From sequence record MN022785.1: 64,000 bases of DNA. One strand, 5' to 3'. Made by a program: the position numbers and the translations under genes. This document shows positions 1 to 45,609 of the stretch, piece by piece. The stretch is from Escherichia phage VEc20. Under the pieces are notes generated by a model, which was given only the letters and a program-made list of their open reading frames with translations, searched no databases and was not told the DNA's origin. How positions within the stretch are numbered: the first letter of the stretch is position 1; each line of letters begins with the position of its first letter.

Positions 1-954
1 GGATTATCATCAAATGCTGAAGTAACAGCAGGAGATTTGATGGAAGCTTGGGACTTCTTTGCTGACCGTGAATCTGTTGACGTTCAACTGTTTATTGCGG
101 GTTCTTGTGCTGGTGAATCTTTAGAAACAGCATCTACTGTCCAAAAACACGTCGTTTCAATTGGTGATGCTCGTCAAGATTGCTTAGTATTGTGCTCACC
201 ACCGCGTGAAACTGTAGTTGGAATTCCTGTAACCCGTGCTGTTGATAACTTAGTCAATTGGAGAACTGCAGCAGGTTCATACACTGATAATAACTTTAAT
301 ATCAGTTCAACCTACGCAGCAATTGATGGTAACTACAAATATCAGTATGACAAATATAATGATGTGAATCGTTGGGTCCCATTAGCAGCTGATATTGCTG
401 GATTGTGTGCAAGAACTGATAACGTATCTCAGACTTGGATGTCTCCAGCTGGTTATAATCGTGGCCAGATTCTTAACGTTATTAAACTTGCTATTGAAAC
501 TCGCCAGGCTCAGCGCGACCGTTTATACCAAGAAGCTATCAACCCAGTAACTGGTACAGGTGGTGATGGTTACGTATTGTATGGTGATAAAACAGCTACT
601 TCTGTTCCTTCTCCATTTGATCGTATTAACGTTCGTCGTCTGTTTAATATGTTGAAAACGAATATCGGACGTAGTTCAAAATATCGTTTGTTCGAATTAA
701 ACAACGCGTTTACTCGTTCATCATTCCGCACAGAAACTGCCCAATACTTACAGGGAATTAAAGCTCTCGGTGGAATTTATGAATATCGTGTAGTTTGCGA
801 TACAACAAATAACACTCCGTCAGTAATTGATAGAAATGAGTTTGTTGCAACATTCTACATCCAACCGGCTCGTAGTATAAATTATATCCAACTTAATTTC
901 GTCGCAACTGCTACTGGTGCAGATTTTGATGAGTTAACTGGTCTTGCAGGTTAA
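1..954 (+). CDS. 18: tail sheath protein, C-terminal part (5' end outside window)
   Basis: Frame 1 open from base 1 to TAA at 952-954; sits directly upstream of tail tube gene as in T4; assignment by synteny and memory. Confidence 0.8.
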   Translation, partial: GLSSNAEVTAGDLMEAWDFFADRESVDVQLFIAGSCAGESLETASTVQKHVVSIGDARQDCLVLCSPPRETVVGIPVTRAVDNLVNWRTAAGSYTDNNFNISSTYAAIDGNYKYQYDKYNDVNRWVPLAADIAGLCARTDNVSQTWMSPAGYNRGQILNVIKLAIETRQAQRDRLYQEAINPVTGTGGDGYVLYGDKTATSVPSPFDRINVRRLFNMLKTNIGRSSKYRLFELNNAFTRSSFRTETAQYLQGIKALGGIYEYRVVCDTTNNTPSVIDRNEFVATFYIQPARSINYIQLNFVATATGADFDELTGLAG

Positions 955-1599
955 TTGATTATGGGGCTTCGGCCCCTATTCTCGAGGAAACAAGTGATTA
1001 TTTCTAAGTTTGTTACAATAAAACCAAGAAATCATTCAAAAATGTGGTCGACAATTCTGGGATATAAAGTATCATATCATGATACAGTATCTGTTCCAAT
1101 AGAATTAATGCCAAAGAATAGTAATAAAATAGTTGACGCTAAATGTGATTTGTGTGGTATTAAATTTAGTAGAAGCATTCAGCTTTTAAATAGAACACCC
1201 ACACATGCATGTAGAAAATGTAGCATTAAACAAGTTGCTATTAAAAATTCGGAAGTTCAATCTGGAATAAGTAGACCATGGCAAAGAGGTGATAAACATC
1301 CTCGATGGACTGGTAAAAGAAAAGAGTTTGCATTATATGCTAGTAGAGTTCATTCTATAACTAAGTCAGCTAAAATAAGAAAAATTTGGTCAAAATGGCC
1401 GAATGCTGATAAAATAGGAGTGTGTGGCGTAGAAGGTGCTTACCAACTCGATCATAAAGTATCTATCAAATATGGATTTGATAATTTAATTCCGCCGGAA
1501 ATTATAGCAAGCGTAAAAAATTTAGAAATAATCACTTGGGAATCTAACCGAGAAAAGTCAAAAAGAAATAGCGTAGATCTTTGGGATTTACTAGAATGA
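955..1599 (+). CDS. HNH-family endonuclease-like protein with Cys-rich zinc-ribbon; true start uncertain (track start is TTG; ATG candidates at 961 and 1042)
   Basis: CDLCG...CRKCS zinc-ribbon-like motif and C-terminal DHKVSIKYGFDN...N...N HNH-like motif; AT-rich codon usage unlike flanking late genes. Confidence 0.5.
   Translation: MIMGLRPLFSRKQVIISKFVTIKPRNHSKMWSTILGYKVSYHDTVSVPIELMPKNSNKIVDAKCDLCGIKFSRSIQLLNRTPTHACRKCSIKQVAIKNSEVQSGISRPWQRGDKHPRWTGKRKEFALYASRVHSITKSAKIRKIWSKWPNADKIGVCGVEGAYQLDHKVSIKYGFDNLIPPEIIASVKNLEIITWESNREKSKRNSVDLWDLLE
963..976 (+). terminator. GC-rich tetraloop hairpin GGGGC-TTCG-GCCCC immediately after gene 18 stop
   Basis: perfect 5-bp GC stem with UUCG loop seen in sequence. 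Confidence 0.4.
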
Positions 1600-1684
1600 T
1601 TCTAAAGGCCTGTTTCGGCAGGCCATATAAATACACTATATCCTTAATTCTTTAATTCTATATGCCCTAGGTTAAACATAGGGA

Positions 1685-1692
1685 TATAAATA
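1685..1692 (+). promoter_or_regulatory. late promoter motif TATAAATA upstream of gene 19 (second copy near 1626-1633)
   Basis: exact TATAAATA about 15 nt upstream of ATG 1707. Confidence 0.55.
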
Positions 1693-1706: not shown

Positions 1707-2198
1707 ATGTTTGTAGATGATGTAACACGAGCGTTTGAATCTGGTGATTTTGCTCGACCTAACTTATTCCAAGTAGAAATTTCTTATCTTGGACAAAATT
1801 TTACATTCCAATGTAAAGCCACTGCTTTACCAGCTGGTATTGTAGAAAAAATTCCAGTCGGATTTATGAACCGTAAAATTAACGTAGCAGGCGATCGTAC
1901 ATTCGATGACTGGACTGTTACAGTAATGAACGATGAAGCTCATGATGCTCGCCAGAAGTTTGTTGATTGGCAAAGCATTGCTGCTGGTCAAGGAAACGAA
2001 ATTACTGGTGGAAAACCTGCAGAGTATAAAAAGAGCGCTATTGTTCGTCAATATGCTCGTGATGCTAAAACAGTAACAAAAGAAATTGAAATTAAAGGTC
2101 TGTGGCCTACTAACGTGGGTGAACTTCAATTAGATTGGGATTCAAACAATGAAATCCAAACCTTTGAAGTAACTCTTGCTCTCGATTATTGGGAATAA
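1707..2198 (+). CDS. 19: tail tube protein
   Basis: 163 aa, length and position match T4 gp19; ATG start after late promoter. Confidence 0.85.
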   Translation: MFVDDVTRAFESGDFARPNLFQVEISYLGQNFTFQCKATALPAGIVEKIPVGFMNRKINVAGDRTFDDWTVTVMNDEAHDARQKFVDWQSIAAGQGNEITGGKPAEYKKSAIVRQYARDAKTVTKEIEIKGLWPTNVGELQLDWDSNNEIQTFEVTLALDYWE

Positions 2199-2230: not shown

Positions 2231-3855
<1,625 letters not shown>

Positions 3856-3856
<1 letters not shown>

Positions 3857-4095
3857 TGGAAGGTTTAATTGAAGCTATTAAATCAAACGACCTCGTAGCC
3901 GCTCGTAAATTATTTGCTGAAGCCATGGCTGCAAGAACGACTGATTTAATTAAAGAAGAAAAAATCGCTATCGCTCGTAATTTCTTAATCGAAGGTGAAG
4001 AACCTGATGACGAGGATGATGACGAAGACGAAGATAGTGATGATAAAGACGACAAAAAAGACAAAGACTCTGACGAAGACGAGGATGATGAATAA
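3856..4095 (+). CDS. 67: prohead core protein with polyacidic C-terminus
   Basis: 79 aa, D/E-rich tail; ATG overlaps gene 20 stop (TAATG). Confidence 0.75.
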
Positions 4096-4520
4096 TGCTT
4101 CTGATCCCTGAAACTCATGAATTAGTTCTCGAGAATGTCGAAGCACTTATTCCTGAAGCACAGGGTCGCTTTGACGAATTGTCTTCTGCTTTAAATAAAG
4201 ACGATATAAATACAATTGTCGAGAATATGCTTGATGATGAAACTGATTTAGCGGTTGCATTAGCTTCTATTAATGAAAATATGCCGTTAAATGAATTTAT
4301 CGTTAAACATGTTTCCGCCCGTGGTGAAATTACTCGCACTAAAGACCGCAAAACGCGTGAACGTAATGCATTTCAAACCACTGGGCTGTCTAAAGCAAAA
4401 CGTAGACAAATTGCTCGTAAAGCTACCAAAACGAAGATTGCCAATCCAGCAGGTCAATCTCGTGCTCAGCGTAAGCGTAAAAAAGCTCTTAAACGCCGTA
4501 AAGCATTAGGATTAAGCTAA
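4095..4520 (+). CDS. 68: prohead core protein
   Basis: 141 aa, basic C-terminus; start overlaps gp67 stop; synteny. Confidence 0.7.
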
Positions 4521-5158
4521 TGAATGAACCCCAATTACTAATTGAAACTTGGGGTCAACCTGGCGAAATTATTGATGGCGTACCAATGCTTGAATCTCAC
4601 GATGGAAAAGACTTAGGTTTAAAACCGGGTTTATACATCGAAGGAATATTCATGCAAGCGGAAGTCGTCAATAGAAATAAACGTCTTTATCCAAAACGTA
4701 TATTAGAAAAAGCGGTAAAAGACTATATTAATGAGCAAGTTTTAACTAAACAAGCTCTCGGAGAATTAAATCATCCTCCACGCGCTAATGTTGACCCGAT
4801 GCAAGCCGCTATCATTATAGAAGATATGTGGTGGAAAGGAAATGACGTATACGGACGAGCTCGTGTTATTGAAGGTGACCATGGTCCTGGAGATAAATTA
4901 GCAGCTAATATTCGTGCCGGATGGATTCCAGGAGTTTCTTCTCGTGGATTAGGTTCATTGACTGACACGAATAAAGGTTATCGTATCGTAAACGAAGGAT
5001 TCAAATTAACTGTAGGTGTTGATGCAGTATGGGGTCCAAGTGCTCCAGATGCATGGGTAACTCCTAAGGAAATTACCGAATCACAGACGGCGGAAGCCGA
5101 TACAAGTGCCGATGACGCCTATATGGCTCTCGCAGAGGCCATGAAAAAAGCGTTATAA
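4520..5158 (+). CDS. 21: prohead core protease
   Basis: 212 aa; position between 68 and 22; resembles T4 gp21 from memory. Confidence 0.85.
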   Translation: MNEPQLLIETWGQPGEIIDGVPMLESHDGKDLGLKPGLYIEGIFMQAEVVNRNKRLYPKRILEKAVKDYINEQVLTKQALGELNHPPRANVDPMQAAIIIEDMWWKGNDVYGRARVIEGDHGPGDKLAANIRAGWIPGVSSRGLGSLTDTNKGYRIVNEGFKLTVGVDAVWGPSAPDAWVTPKEITESQTAEADTSADDAYMALAEAMKKAL

Positions 5159-5161
5159 ATA
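5154..5161 (+). promoter_or_regulatory. late promoter motif TATAAATA upstream of gene 22
   Basis: exact TATAAATA overlapping gene 21 stop, about 28 nt upstream of ATG 5189. Confidence 0.5.
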
Positions 5162-5188
5162 TTATTATCTAAACAACAGGACTACAAA

Positions 5189-5998
5189 ATGCTTAAAGAA
5201 CAACTGATTGCCGAAGCGCAGAAAATTGATGCTTCCGTTGCTCTTGATAGTATTTTCGAATCAGTTAATATTTCTCCGGAAGCAAAAGAAACTTTCGGCA
5301 CTGTATTCGAAGCTACCGTCAAGCAGCACGCCGTTAAATTAGCTGAATCTCATATCGCTAAAATTGCTGAAAAAGCAGAAGAAGAAGTAGAAAAAAATAA
5401 AGAAGAAGCAGAAGAAAAAGCTGAGAAGAAAATCGCTGAGCAAGCTTCTAAATTCCTTGACCATCTTGCAAAAGAATGGCTCACTGAAAATAAATTAGCA
5501 GTTGATAAAGGCATCAAAGCCGAACTGTTTGAATCCATGCTTGGTGGATTAAAAGAGCTCTTTGTTGAACACAACGTTGTTGTTCCAGAAGAATCAGTTG
5601 ATGTTGTAGCTGAAATGGAAGAAGAGCTGCAAGAACATAAAGAAGAATCAGCTCGTCTGTTCGAAGAACTCAATAAGCGTGACGCATATATCAATTATGT
5701 GCAGCGTGAAGTGGCATTGAGCGAAAGTACTAAAGATCTGACTGAGTCTCAAAAAGAAAAAGTCTCTGCTCTGGTCGAAGGTATGGATTATTCAGATGCA
5801 TTCTCAAGTAAATTGAGTGCAATCGTAGAAATGGTGAAGAAATCTAATAAAGATGAAAGCACTATTACTGAGAGTATAAATACTCCTGATACTGAAGCAG
5901 CCGGACTGAATTTCGTCACTGAAGCTGTAGAAGATAAAGCTGCACCTGGTGCAGAAGATATTGTAAGTGTATATGCGAAAGTCGCATCTCGTTTCTAA
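5189..5998 (+). CDS. 22: prohead core scaffold protein
   Basis: 269 aa, highly charged E/K-rich helical protein; synteny. Confidence 0.85.
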   Translation: MLKEQLIAEAQKIDASVALDSIFESVNISPEAKETFGTVFEATVKQHAVKLAESHIAKIAEKAEEEVEKNKEEAEEKAEKKIAEQASKFLDHLAKEWLTENKLAVDKGIKAELFESMLGGLKELFVEHNVVVPEESVDVVAEMEEELQEHKEESARLFEELNKRDAYINYVQREVALSESTKDLTESQKEKVSALVEGMDYSDAFSSKLSAIVEMVKKSNKDESTITESINTPDTEAAGLNFVTEAVEDKAAPGAEDIVSVYAKVASRF

Positions 5999-6016
5999 TT
6001 TTAAAGGTTAACACAA

Positions 6017-7582
6017 ATGACTATCAAAACTAAAGCTGAACTTTTGAACAAATGGAAGCCATTACTGGAAGGTGAAGGTTTACCGGAAATTGCTAATAGC
6101 AAACAAGCGATTATCGCTAAAATCTTTGAAAACCAGGAAAAAGATTTCCAGACAGCTCCGGAATATAAAGACGAAAAAATTGCTCAGGCATTTGGTTCTT
6201 TCTTAACAGAAGCTGAAATCGGTGGTGACCACGGTTACAATGCTACCAACATCGCTGCAGGTCAGACTTCTGGCGCAGTAACTCAGATTGGCCCAGCTGT
6301 TATGGGTATGGTACGTCGTGCTATTCCTAACCTGATTGCTTTCGATATTTGTGGTGTTCAGCCGATGAACAGCCCAACCGGTCAGGTATTCGCACTCCGC
6401 GCGGTATATGGTAAAGACCCAATCGCTGCCGATGCTAAAGAAGCATTCCACCCAATGTATGGTCCAGATGCAATGTTCTCTGGTCAGGGTGCTGCTAAGA
6501 AATTCCCAGCTCTGGCTGCTAGCACACAAACCACAGTAGGTGATATCTATACTCACTTCTTCCAGGACACTGGTACTGTGTATCTGCAAGCTTCTGCTCA
6601 AGTAACAATCGATGCTGGTGCGACTGATGCTGCTAAATTAGATGCTGAAATTAAGAAACAAATGGAAGCTGGTGCACTGGTAGAAATCGCTGAAGGTATG
6701 GCTACTTCTATCGCTGAACTTCAGGAAGGTTTCAATGGTTCTACCGATAACCCATGGAATGAAATGGGCTTCCGTATCGATAAGCAAGTTATCGAAGCTA
6801 AATCTCGTCAGCTGAAAGCTGCTTACTCTATTGAATTAGCACAAGACCTCCGCGCTGTTCACGGTATGGATGCTGATGCTGAACTGTCTGGTATTCTGGC
6901 TACCGAAATCATGCTGGAAATCAACCGTGAAGTTGTTGATTGGATTAACTACTCCGCACAGGTTGGTAAATCTGGTATGACCCTGACTCCGGGTTCTAAA
7001 GCTGGTGTATTTGACTTCCAGGACCCAATCGATATTCGTGGTGCTCGCTGGGCAGGTGAATCCTTTAAAGCTCTGTTGTTCCAGATTGACAAAGAAGCAG
7101 TTGAAATTGCTCGTCAAACCGGTCGCGGCGAAGGTAACTTCATTATCGCTTCTCGTAACGTAGTTAACGTACTGGCTTCTGTTGATACTGGCATTTCTTA
7201 TGCTGCTCAAGGTTTGGCAACCGGTTTTAATACTGATACTACTAAGTCAGTATTTGCAGGTGTTCTGGGTGGTAAATACCGTGTATATATCGACCAGTAT
7301 GCTAAACAGGATTATTTCACTGTAGGTTATAAAGGTCCGAACGAAATGGATGCTGGTATTTACTATGCTCCATATGTAGCTCTGACTCCGCTGCGTGGTT
7401 CCGATCCGAAGAACTTCCAACCGGTAATGGGATTCAAAACTCGTTACGGTATCGGTATCAACCCATTTGCAGAATCCGCTGTTCAGGCTCCGGCTTCTCG
7501 CATCCAGAGCGGTATGCCTTCTATTCTGAATAGCCTTGGTAAAAACGCTTACTTCCGCCGTGTATATGTTAAAGGTATCTAA
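6017..7582 (+). CDS. 23: major capsid protein
   Basis: 521 aa; N-terminus MTIKTKAELLNKWKPLLEGEG matches T4 gp23 from memory. Confidence 0.95.
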   Translation: MTIKTKAELLNKWKPLLEGEGLPEIANSKQAIIAKIFENQEKDFQTAPEYKDEKIAQAFGSFLTEAEIGGDHGYNATNIAAGQTSGAVTQIGPAVMGMVRRAIPNLIAFDICGVQPMNSPTGQVFALRAVYGKDPIAADAKEAFHPMYGPDAMFSGQGAAKKFPALAASTQTTVGDIYTHFFQDTGTVYLQASAQVTIDAGATDAAKLDAEIKKQMEAGALVEIAEGMATSIAELQEGFNGSTDNPWNEMGFRIDKQVIEAKSRQLKAAYSIELAQDLRAVHGMDADAELSGILATEIMLEINREVVDWINYSAQVGKSGMTLTPGSKAGVFDFQDPIDIRGARWAGESFKALLFQIDKEAVEIARQTGRGEGNFIIASRNVVNVLASVDTGISYAAQGLATGFNTDTTKSVFAGVLGGKYRVYIDQYAKQDYFTVGYKGPNEMDAGIYYAPYVALTPLRGSDPKNFQPVMGFKTRYGIGINPFAESAVQAPASRIQSGMPSILNSLGKNAYFRRVYVKGI

Positions 7583-16462: not shown

Positions 16463-17088
16463 TACAATAGCTCAAAGAATTCTTTGAGTCCTCTTATTAC
16501 ATGAGCGTGAGATTTTCCACACTCTGGACACTTAATTGGAACAGCCAAATAAACAGTAGGCTTTAAAAGCATATCTTTTATAGCTACAATATCTGACTCT
16601 GTGATGATAGAATATAAATCTTCCAACTCTTTTTCATTCAAGTCTTCAATTGGAATGCTTTCCCCGTTAGCATGAATCGTTTCTATGCATGATACTATCA
16701 TGTGGGCTATATTTTTATCATCAAAAATTTTAGGGTAATGGAACTTAATTTTGATGTCACCCAGTGTATACCAGAGGTCTTCTGGTGCATCTATTTGTGT
16801 ATGTAATAGATTTATATGGGTTGGTATTTCAGTTCCACAGGTGCACTTCCAGGAGTTTTCGTGATTAACTTCGCCGAGAGAATGTGCCCATAAATGAATC
16901 AACAATAGTTCTGATTCTTGGCGGTTTAAATCTTTTGCATTTGTGCAGTCTTTGATTAGCTTTTTAACAATTACTTCTACGGAACCATTATTTTTGGCAG
17001 TAATAAGTTCTAGATATTCTTTAAGCGTGAATGCGCGACAATTGATTATTTTAGAACCAACTCTCACATCAAATTTGTATTCATACAT
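16462..17088 (-). CDS. 26: baseplate hub protein
   Basis: 208 aa; synteny. Confidence 0.8.
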
Positions 17089-17109
17089 ATTTAGCTCCTT
17101 TATTTATCA

Positions 17110-17121
17110 TATTTATAAATA
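17110..17121. promoter_or_regulatory. overlapping divergent late promoter motifs between genes 26 and 51
   Basis: TATTTATAAATA contains TATAAATA on both strands. Confidence 0.5.
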
Positions 17122-17138
17122 GAATAAAAGGAGCATCT

Positions 17139-17888
17139 ATGGCAAACATTATTCGTTGTAAATTACCAGATGGTGTTCATCGTTTTAAACCATTTACGGT
17201 AGAAGATTATCGAGATTTTTTGTTAGTTCGAAACGATATAGAACATCGGTCACCACAAGAACAAAAAGAAATAATTACTGATTTAATTGATGATTATTTT
17301 GGAGACTATCCGAAGACTTGGCAACCATTTATATTTTTGCAGGTATTTGTAGGGTCAATAGGTAAAACTAAAGTACCAGTCACATTCGTATGTCCAAAAT
17401 GTAAAAAAGAAAAGACAGTTCCATTTGAAATATATCAAAAAGAATTAAAGGAACCTGTTTTTGATGTAGCTAATGTTAAAATTAAATTAAAGTTTCCTTC
17501 TGAGTTTTATGAAAATAAAGCAAAGATGATTACTGAAAATATTCATTCCGTCCAAGTAGATGAAATTTGGTATGATTGGAAGGAAATTAGCGAGTCCAGT
17601 CAAATAGAACTAGTTGACGCCATCGAGATAGAAACATTAGAAAAAATTCTCGATGCAATGAATCCTATTAATTTAACTCTACATATGTCATGCTGTAATA
17701 AGTACATTAAAAAATACACTGATATAGTAGACGTGTTTAAGCTATTAGTTAACCCAGATGAGATATTTACTTTTTATCAAATTAATCACACACTCGTAAA
17801 AAGTAATTATAGCTTAAATTCAATAATGAAAATGATTCCTGCCGAGCGCGGATTCGTATTAAAACTGATTGAGAAGGATAAACAATAA
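17139..17888 (+). CDS. 51: baseplate hub assembly protein
   Basis: 249 aa; synteny. Confidence 0.8.
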
Positions 17889-44593: not shown

Positions 44594-45609
44594 CATTATG
44601 TTCAGATAAGGTCGTTAATCTTATCCCGGAATTATATCCAGCTGCATGTCACCATGCAGAGCAGACTATATCTCCAACTTGTTAAAGCAAGTTGTCTATC
44701 GTTTCGAGTCACTTGACCCTACTCCCTAAAGGGATAGTCGTTAGGCATTTATGTAGAACCAATTCCACTTATCAGATTTTACACGGTAAGTAACTAATCC
44801 TGATGAAATTTCAAAATGTCTAGCCGCATCGGCTGCACATTCAAAAATAATCCCATCGCATGAAATCTTTTTGATGTTAGCTGGCTTTTTGCCTTTCATC
44901 TTTTCAGATAGTTTAGTTTTAGTTTTTTCTGAATGTTTGTGATTAAAGAACGGGTTATTTTCACCTGAACGTTTTCGGCACTTTCCACAAGTATCGGCCG
45001 AAGATGGTATGCGAACACCGCATTTACAAAACTTGTGGTTTTCTGGATTCCATCGGCCATTTTTACTTCCGTGTTTACCATAAAGAGCTTTCCGACCATC
45101 AGGACCAAGCTTAAGCATCTTAGCTTTAACAGTTTCAGCTCGTTTCTTAGCAATTTCTTCTTTTAATGGATGATTTGAAAGCACATCGCCAAAAGACGCA
45201 TCAGCAATATTATATCCATTAATTTTAGAATTTAGCTCTTTAATCCAAAAATTTTCTCGTTCAATAATCAAATCTTTCTCATATGGAATTTCTTCCAGTA
45301 CAGAGCATTCAAAAACATTACCATGTTTATTAAAAGACCTTTGAAATTTTATAGAAGAGTGAACACCGTTTTCAAGGTCTTTAAAATGTCTCTTCCATCT
45401 TTTCTCAAAATCTTTAGCACTTCCAACATACACTTTACCGTTTAAAGTGTTTTTAATCTGATAAATTCCGCTTTTCATAAACACCTCTTTTTATATAGAA
45501 GTATTTATTAAAGGGTAGTCCTACAATTTAGCACGGGATTGTCTACTAGAGAGGTCCCCCGTTTAGATAGATTACAAGTATAAGTCACCTTATACCTAGG
45601 CCTAAATTA
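44594..45609 (-). mobile_element. td group I self-splicing intron (1016 nt) carrying I-TevI
   Basis: 5' intron sequence TAATTTAGGCCTAGGTATAAGGTGACTTATACTTGTAATCTATCTAAACGGGG... matches T4 td intron from memory; ends in G before exon 2; length 1016 as in T4. Confidence 0.9.
44741..45478 (-). CDS. I-TevI: intron-encoded GIY-YIG homing endonuclease
   Basis: MKSGIYQIKNTLNGKVYVGSAKDFEKRWKRHF... matches I-TevI from memory; 245 aa. Confidence 0.9.
   Translation of the reverse strand: MKSGIYQIKNTLNGKVYVGSAKDFEKRWKRHFKDLENGVHSSIKFQRSFNKHGNVFECSVLEEIPYEKDLIIERENFWIKELNSKINGYNIADASFGDVLSNHPLKEEIAKKRAETVKAKMLKLGPDGRKALYGKHGSKNGRWNPENHKFCKCGVRIPSSADTCGKCRKRSGENNPFFNHKHSEKTKTKLSEKMKGKKPANIKKISCDGIIFECAADAARHFEISSGLVTYRVKSDKWNWFYINA

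Follow-up and report, generated by a model that had tools for sequence, protein, structure and literature searches.

A probable free-standing HNH homing endonuclease gene at the tail sheath/tail tube junction of T4-like phages

Escherichia phage VEc20 (sequence record MN022785.1) carries an extra open reading frame (ORF) between its tail sheath gene, gene 18, and its tail tube gene, gene 19. We analyzed this ORF in a 64,000-nucleotide (nt) stretch of the phage DNA (the window, whose positions are used throughout), and comparisons of sequences indicate that it is probably a free-standing homing endonuclease gene of an HNH (H-N-N type) family, with the sheath/tube junction of T4-like phages as its home site. 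In T4 strain 147, gene 18 ends in GGTTAA and is followed by TACGGTGC and then by ATTCTAAAGGCC, with no gene between 18 and 19. In the window, 644 nt (955 to 1598) stand in place of these 8 nt, as seen when the junction was compared with those of T4, KIT03, G50, and IMG/VR contigs. An earlier note on this DNA, made from the sequence alone, had described genes 18 and 19 as adjacent in T4 and had placed an extra gene between them at 955 to 1599; both points are confirmed, the second almost to the base.

At the empty site, these 8 nt separate gene 18 from the hairpin and late promoters 5' of gene 19 (Table 1). To the right of the insert, 206 nt, which include this hairpin and two late promoter motifs, align to T4 without a mismatch. 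Over positions 600 to 2200, identity is 99.6% with Tequatrovirus phages such as JK08 and AV119 and 98.4% with T6. One empty-junction sequence is common to all eight of the eight empty Tequatrovirus-type junctions that were read, in genomes that are otherwise 95 to 99% identical. In empty genomes, gene 18 is followed directly by the resident hairpin, the second of the two in the window, and the GGGGC-UUCG-GCCCC hairpin is absent. The insert is a discrete cassette, with its own upstream UUCG hairpin, a GAGG ribosome site, a GTG start, and 201 codons, that is found in a minority of near-identical genomes and is precisely missing from the rest.

Counted from TTG at 955, the ORF on the positive strand (955 to 1599) would encode 214 amino acids. 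The true start is most likely GTG at 994, which gives a protein of 201 residues, because homologues from other genera begin with (M/V)-I-I-S-K at this point and the T6 and CE1 records annotate GTG 994. A GTG start is also used by several homologues in other genera; databases contain an alternative call from ATG 961 (212 residues, P0001). With the start at GTG 994, the hairpin at 963 to 976 falls in the spacer between gene 18 and the ORF, outside the coding sequence, and the overlap between this hairpin and the 5' end of the ORF that had been proposed disappears. A motif scan found no late promoter motif between gene 18 and the ORF, which is presumably expressed by read-through of late gene 18 transcripts. 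Rfam gave no match in the spacer region. A hairpin that would sequester the ribosome site in the spacer was considered and rejected, since the fold was no better than that of shuffled sequences (z = -0.28).

Both intercistronic hairpins of the window (963 to 976 and 1607 to 1624) carry UUCG tetraloops. A stem-loop 3' of gene 18 also occurs in the homologous spacers of STP4-a, KMB20, Roth21, Mokit, CHI14, and phiM7, and each coding unit keeps its own downstream hairpin.

The ORF had been described as strongly AT-rich. Its GC content of 0.320 (GC3, 0.178) is below that of gene 18 (0.40) and gene 19 (0.38), but the description was overstated: the mean over the 64-kb window is 0.362 (standard deviation, 0.034), and 7% of windows of the size of the ORF have an equal or lower GC content. 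Composition is thus weak evidence.

Table 1. Features at the gene 18/gene 19 junction (window positions)
Feature	Position	Strand	Basis
Gene 18 (tail sheath), 3' part; stop TAA 952-954	1..954	+	ORF listing; "tail sheath" annotation in matching records
Substitution patch in gene 18 relative to T4, candidate target/immunity site; core I-N codons ATA AAT 877-882	871..903	+	Mismatch clustering
Insert proper, 644 nt in place of the 8 nt TACGGTGC of the T4-type empty site	955..1598	+	Junction comparison
Hairpin GGGGC-UUCG-GCCCC with C(UUCG)G tetraloop, part of the insert, 5' of the ORF start	963..976	+	Sequence; RNA fold; 6 of 6 insert-bearing Tequatrovirus junctions read, 0 of 8 empty ones
Shine-Dalgarno GAGG (984-987) and probable GTG start (994-996)	984..996	+	Sequence; T6 coding sequence annotation; homologue N-termini
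Gene for 201-residue two-domain protein, putative free-standing HNH homing endonuclease; stop TGA 1597-1599	994..1599	+	PHROG 5104, E = 5e-82; 46 close homologues; 6533 homologous clusters
N-terminal domain, residues 1-90, Cys4 treble-clef zinc site; presumed DNA recognition; swapped between T6-type and RB3/RB10-type alleles	994..1263	+	Cysteines; DUF4379 matches; mosaic alleles
C-terminal HNH (beta-beta-alpha-metal) domain, residues 109-201; core strands and helix 1441-1557	1318..1596	+	
Predicted catalytic D153-H154 (1450-1455), N176 (1519-1521), N185 (1546-1548)	within 1318..1596	+	
Hairpin GGCCUGU-UUCG-GCAGGCC, the resident post-gene-18 hairpin of empty genomes, here 3' of the insert	1607..1624	+	Identical in T4 and all genomes compared
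Two T4-type late promoter motifs TATAAATA (1626-1633, 1685-1692), 5' of gene 19, outside the insert	1626..1692	+	Motif positions; identical to T4
Gene 19 (tail tube), then gene 20	1707..2198	+	ORF listing; annotations

The protein was assigned to PHROG family 5104, which is annotated as "unknown function" (E = 5e-82). A word-indexed search returned 46 homologues, and an exhaustive profile search returned 6533 clusters at E <= 0.001. Conservation of the cysteines and of the C-terminal block was scored in 44 close homologues, and invariant residues were sought among 128 diverse representatives of the 6533-cluster family. Homologues in a few GenBank records are labeled "HNH endonuclease," "homing endonuclease," or "type II restriction endonuclease." From residue conservation and predicted structures, we conclude that the protein is a two-domain enzyme, with a zinc DNA-binding domain, a linker, and a putative H-N-N type HNH nuclease domain that has no zinc cysteines of its own. 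More distant proteins carry the same nuclease domain behind other N termini and in other genomic contexts. A distant relative with DUF7487 and the same nuclease domain (P0046) lies at about 4868 to 6060 in two phage-like contigs of ~190 kb (L020) and 53 kb (L021); it adjoins four small ORFs whose presence or absence distinguishes the otherwise identical contigs, with a ribosomal protein S21 gene nearby.

The N-terminal domain contains the four cysteines that had been read as a zinc-ribbon-like segment. They are C51, C54, C73, and C76 in the 201-residue numbering (codons at 1144, 1153, 1210, and 1219) and are conserved in the 44 close homologues; the fold is assigned here to a DUF4379-like treble clef. 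Matches to DUF4379 (PF14311), a domain of kinetoplastid mitoribosomal mS66, were obtained with Pfam in 17 of the 44 members (best member, E = 8e-4), but none reaches the gathering score, and the window protein itself scores 14 bits against a cutoff of 24.5. The family profile matches DUF4379-containing mS66 chains at E = 2.6e-4, which supports a distant relationship of the N-terminal domain to DUF4379. Searches of PDB sequences with phmmer and hmmsearch gave only zinc-finger and DUF4379-like matches, all of them to this domain.

The C-terminal domain is a conserved block in the 44 close homologues, and D153, H154, N176, and N185 are the sole invariant residues among the 128 diverse representatives. 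AlphaFold gave confident models (predicted local distance difference test score, 88) for the whole protein and for residues 95 to 201, in which a strand that ends in D-H is followed by a second strand with N-L at its start and then by a helix bearing N185, so that the predicted domain has the beta-hairpin and following alpha-helix of the beta-beta-alpha-metal fold. Its closest solved structures are HNH endonucleases, 5h0o (GVE2 HNH) and 4h9d (Gme HNH), at 11 to 20% identity; a Foldseek search against the PDB yielded nothing significant. With hhalign, the DH/N/N residues fell in register with the Cas9 HNH motif (P = 0.0066, with a provisional Cas9 sequence). The HNH-like motif that the earlier note had seen at the C terminus is thus upheld by the invariant D-H/N/N and the predicted fold, and the lack of an HNH fold, which would have spoken against that note's reading, is not what the models predict.

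Profile searches for HNH families, which had been proposed as a check, gave a divided answer. In Pfam, NCBIfam, and PADLOC the window protein had no significant match, and scans of it, the 44 homologues, and 10 distant members gave no HNH or defense-system match. For HNH models in particular, there was no match of the window protein at E <= 10, one of the 44 members matched HNH_4 at E = 0.078, and 0 of the 10 distant members matched an HNH model at E <= 0.01. PHROG families, on the other hand, did match a minority of the 128 members: 33 matched "endonuclease VII," 21 "homing endonuclease," and 11 "HNH endonuclease." The lack of a Pfam HNH match, together with the lack in the C-terminal domain of the zinc cysteines typical of many HNH domains, would suit a catalytically dead domain in a protein that serves only as a DNA-binding or regulatory factor. 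We consider this highly improbable, given that none of D-H, N, and N varies among the 128 diverse sequences and that cysteine-less H-N-N nuclease domains, such as that of Cas9, with which the register agrees, are active.

The nearest structures also bear on a second proposal, that the protein is associated with packaging, like the terminase helpers of HK97-like and GVE2-like phages, and has been kept in the morphogenesis cluster as a partner of the large terminase, whose gene stands two genes upstream. Both 5h0o and 4h9d are small stand-alone HNH nicking enzymes, which we take to be members of the terminase-associated group, and the gene order, terL-sheath-ORF-tube-portal, would agree with such a role. 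However, T4-type headful packaging relies on cutting by the terminase's own nuclease, and the gene is missing from T4 and most of its relatives. The additional, sequence-variable zinc domain that is swapped between alleles also fits site-specific recognition better than a terminase cofactor, and we attach very little credence to a packaging function.

We evaluated how common the insert is at this junction. Among ~520 Tequatrovirus records, 69 to 73 (~13%) have the allele of the window, including T6, PST, and PP01, and 48 (9%) have a second allele, the RB3/RB10 type, including RB3, RB5 to RB10, Sf22, and HP3. The junction is thus occupied by two alleles in ~22% of the records and empty in ~78%, T4 included. 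In this comparison of T-even genomes, which had been proposed as a check, the ORF is not conserved in all relatives without sign of insertion: most close relatives are empty, and the empty junctions read share one sequence. The two alleles have near-identical DNA over ~70 nt at the 5' end and ~230 nt at the 3' end, whereas the N-terminal domains between these ends are 38% identical. The alleles are therefore mosaic.

A scan of IMG/VR for exact matches to the right-junction pattern recovered 5 loci, too few for statistics, and was replaced by protein-guided retrieval of loci. In every T4-like genome examined, covering at least seven genera, family members lie directly between sheath and tube. 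This order was found in Karamvirus KMB20, Gelderlandvirus STP4-a, Klebsiella phage Roth21, Acinetobacter phage Mokit, Serratia phage CHI14, Sinorhizobium phage phiM7, Shewanella phage Thanatos-2, and ~30 IMG/VR contigs; the genera represented are Karamvirus, Gelderlandvirus, Jiaodavirus, Hadassahvirus, Winklervirus, and Emdodecavirus, besides that of Thanatos-2. In Enterobacter phage KMB20 (L004), two different family members, one T6-like (2501 to 3100) and one CHI14-like (3210 to 3902), stand in tandem between sheath and tube.

Some of these loci have further peculiarities. The second tandem member of KMB20 overlaps the start of gene 19, and an additional unannotated ORF of 193 residues lies between tube and portal (4398 to 4979); the 18-19-20 spacers look like a landing strip for extra genes. 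In phiM7 (L008), the expected place of the tail tube gene, 3' of the endonuclease homologue, is taken by a gene of 703 codons (3139 to 5250) with the annotation "tail protein," about four times as long as gp19. In Thanatos-2 (L024, 1 to 1980), the large terminase appears as two consecutive ORFs, both with Terminase_6N matches, the first of which also matches a Tn7 TnsA-like N-terminal nuclease domain; this terminase gene has possibly been split or invaded.

The relationships of the ORF do not follow those of the adjacent tail tube protein. The window and RB10 have identical gp19 (100%) and ORF N-terminal domains that are 38% identical, whereas RB10 and Klebsiella phage Roth21 share 67% identity in gp19 and 62% in the N-terminal domain. 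Likewise, STP4-a is 87% identical to CHI14 in gp19 and 44% over the whole ORF, but 72% and 70% identical, respectively, to Thanatos-2. This incongruence, the mosaicism of the alleles, the tandem pair, and the uniform empty junctions speak more for repeated horizontal transfer into a single conserved site than for vertical descent with loss. Close relatives differ by presence or absence at one precise site (644 nt versus 8 nt), as expected of a free-standing homing endonuclease gene. The insert had been called a marker of recent mobile invasion. That its presence is polymorphic stands, but its recency is unsupported: the family occupies the same site across very distant T4-like phages, and the association with the sheath/tube junction is therefore old.

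An old association could also mean that an accessory gene has resided at this site all along, inherited vertically and lost many times, including from T4, and that its nuclease benefits the phage, for instance through late DNA processing or by excluding competitors. The same sheath/tube position in at least seven distant genera fits this account, as do catalytic residues kept everywhere, which imply purifying selection, and a late promoter of the gene's own in some genera (TATAAATA just 5' of the gene in Mokit and CHI14). It does not readily accommodate N-terminal domains of 38% identity beside identical gp19, the similar disagreements of STP4-a with CHI14 and Thanatos-2, mosaicism and double occupancy, or a single empty sequence in all the empty junctions read. 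Moreover, the gene is dispensable in ~78% of Tequatrovirus records. We judge long residence with vertical descent improbable.

The last 954 nt of gene 18 contain 34 mismatches to T4, 14 of them within 33 nt (871 to 903) and 20 in the other 921 nt (Poisson P = 5.5e-14). Eleven of the 14 differences in this patch are synonymous, and the other three make up a single T->Q codon. The same codons behave alike in a second genus: in the 50-nt bin that covers them in Klebsiella phages, two insert-bearing genomes differ from three insert-less ones by 12 to 13 nt, and the insert-less ones differ from each other by 0 to 2 nt. At the core of the patch, the I-N codons of the gp18 motif S-I-N-Y/F-I read ATA AAT in 15 of 16 genomes that have a close relative of the ORF (Tequatrovirus, Jiaodavirus, Karamvirus, Gelderlandvirus, and Acinetobacter and Shewanella phages). 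Insert-less genomes have ATT or ATC AAC in 55 of 63 cases and ATA AAT in 8. Over all deduplicated loci, 20 of 36 insert-bearing genomes have ATA AAT, against 8 of 63 that lack the insert (Fisher p = 1.4e-5, with no phylogenetic correction). Of the 18 isoleucine codons in this part of gene 18, only that at 877 is ATA; gene 19 contains no ATA codon.

Co-conversion from a divergent donor was rejected as the sole cause of the patch: the 51 nt between patch and insert are close to T4 (2 mismatches), and Roth21 and coliphage RB10 share the patch alone. The sequence from the patch to the stop codon differs between genera, and Roth21 does not share that stretch with RB10, so the patch is a discrete feature and not merely the end of a co-conversion tract. 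We read these I-N codons as a probable part of the recognition site of the enzyme, where ATA AAT would protect its carrier; judging from these sequence comparisons, the recognition region is most likely formed by the S-I-N-Y-I codons of gene 18 (874 to 888). An alternative target is a site that spans the empty junction itself (TAATACGGTGCATTCT).

The patch might instead be a signal for expression. Read with the preceding AGT, positions 876 to 883 are TATAAATT, a 7-of-8 match to the T4 late promoter consensus TATAAATA, so that a near-consensus late promoter would lie in the end of gene 18, ~110 nt 5' of the ORF start. Between gene 18 and the ORF there is no other such motif, and genes of the CHI14 type, with a TATAAATA of their own directly 5', have no patch. 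In most other genera, however, the serine codon is TCG, giving GATAAATT, and elsewhere it is GCG, AGC, or TCA; the common element is ATAAATT(A/T)T, not the promoter octamer. In addition, the patch and a canonical late promoter occur together in Mokit, and patch-bearing empty sites are common. Because most other genera read GATAAATT, a promoter role is the less likely one for the patch, and we regard it as unlikely; this question concerns the patch only and leaves the reading of the insert as a homing endonuclease gene unaffected.

Several observations weigh against that reading or its link to the patch. The Pfam HNH, NCBIfam, and PADLOC models miss the window protein, and conservation of the site over such a wide range of phages could be that of an old resident gene. 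The association of patch and insert in several genera is strong but imperfect. A patch of the ATA AAT type is present in about 69 empty records, although these are explicable as resistant empty sites or short conversion tracts. There is one clear exception in the other direction, Shigella phage sb2, in which an intact RB10-type gene accompanies a gene 18 patch of the T4-like kind, and the CHI14-type subfamily has no association of patch and insert. Within a genus, some association would also arise from physical linkage alone, as 52 to 84 nt separate patch and insert. Finally, full-text literature searches found no published description of the gene, gene 18/19 terms do not occur in the Edgell review, and a 2023 nuclease-boundary paper makes no mention of the sheath or of the gene 18/19 site. 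In sb2 (L019; 233 to 994 and 1155 to 1808), the sheath frame ends ~150 nt early, by a frameshift or a sequencing error.

Homing itself, that is, cleavage and unidirectional inheritance, we infer by analogy. The gene would be transcribed late by read-through from gene 18, with low translation expected from its weak GTG start. In a mixed infection, the zinc domain would bind a specific site on the insert-less co-infecting genome, and the HNH domain would nick or cut this DNA; HNH monomers usually nick. Recombination-dependent repair from an insert-bearing genome would then copy the cassette together with nearby gene 18 sequence. The AT(T/C) AAC codons of empty genomes at S-I-N-Y-I would be the target, and ATA AAT in the insert-bearing genomes of this subfamily would confer protection. 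These steps are modeled on the biology of the T4 Seg and Mob endonucleases (PMC2988022, PMC2790892).

A broader proposal, to which we would give somewhat less than an even chance, is that one lineage has kept the sheath/tube home site across T4-like subfamilies (Tevenvirinae, Twarogvirinae, Emdodecavirus, Shewanella phages, and many uncultured phages) and that susceptibility is set largely by a synonymous switch between AT(T/C) AAC (sensitive) and ATA AAT (immune). If it is true, sequence databases hold all stages of the homing cycle, from sensitive empty sites through occupied and resistant empty ones to domain-swapped alleles and tandem invaders, and a natural system of gene drive and resistance alleles can be read from genome sequences.

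No second copy or paralogue of the ORF was found within the window. A weak paralogue match at 44744 to 45490 was rejected, as it is I-TevI, a GIY-YIG enzyme. This 249-residue ORF on the negative strand matches GIY-YIG, I-TevI zinc finger, and I-TevI DNA-binding domains (E down to 2e-31) and is therefore the td intron endonuclease carried by this phage. Elsewhere in the window, ORFs at 16465 to 17103 (negative strand) and 17055 to 17885 (positive strand) start back to back with an overlap of ~50 nt. Both match T4_baseplate (PF12322; E = 6e-63 and 6e-55, respectively) and are presumably the paralogous hub genes 26 and 51.

Free-standing homing endonucleases are already well known in T-even phages, and the category is not new. 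What is added is the strict fidelity to one site across distant phages and a sharply defined candidate target (S-I-N-Y-I) with a candidate immunity variant. PHROG 5104, with "unknown function," 6533 clusters, and no Pfam model for its nuclease domain, becomes readable as a putative H-N-N nuclease joined to a treble-clef zinc DNA-binding domain, which would explain the "hypothetical protein" that recurs between sheath and tube in hundreds of therapeutic-phage genomes. Such elements influence which flanking sheath and tube alleles win mixed infections, a point of relevance to phage cocktails.

Among known systems, the MobA to MobE genes of T4, of which MobE has been characterized (PMC2790892), resemble the window element in being free-standing, wedged between two conserved essential T-even genes, and optional among close relatives. 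They also share an HNH-type catalytic motif and, by analogy, the expected action on an insert-less genome in mixed infection with co-conversion of flanks. Unlike them, the window protein has no detectable similarity to any other gene in the window and no Pfam HNH match, its DNA-binding domain comes first and its nuclease last, and its DNA-binding part is a Cys4 treble clef of the DUF4379-like kind.

F-CphI (ORF177 of cyanophage S-PM2) is a free-standing homing endonuclease of a T4-like phage and belongs to the DHHRN family, whose defining features are a DHDH at the center with CX2-4C and CX2C on its flanks, a conserved arginine, and a distal asparagine (PMC6083498). Its C-terminal beta-beta-alpha-metal domain is related to T4 endonuclease VII, the PHROG annotation matched by 33 of the 128 members of the window family. 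The window family, in contrast, has DH(K/I)(V/I)S with no second histidine, W-x-x-N in place of CX2C, and no zinc cysteines in the nuclease domain, and membership in DHHRN was rejected because DHDH and CX2C are absent.

The Gme HNH (4h9d) and phage GVE2 HNH (5h0o) enzymes are single-domain proteins, whereas the window protein adds a 90-residue zinc domain and a linker. The HNH domain of Cas9, itself of the H-N-N type without zinc cysteines, matches in the register (Y)-x-(L/V)-D-H ... N-(L/K) ... N-R-x-K (again with the provisional Cas9 sequence), but its context is entirely different, and the similarity is limited to a catalytic core of ~40 residues. The window element comes from a family that has no curated model and is of the same kind as the T4 mob genes and F-CphI.

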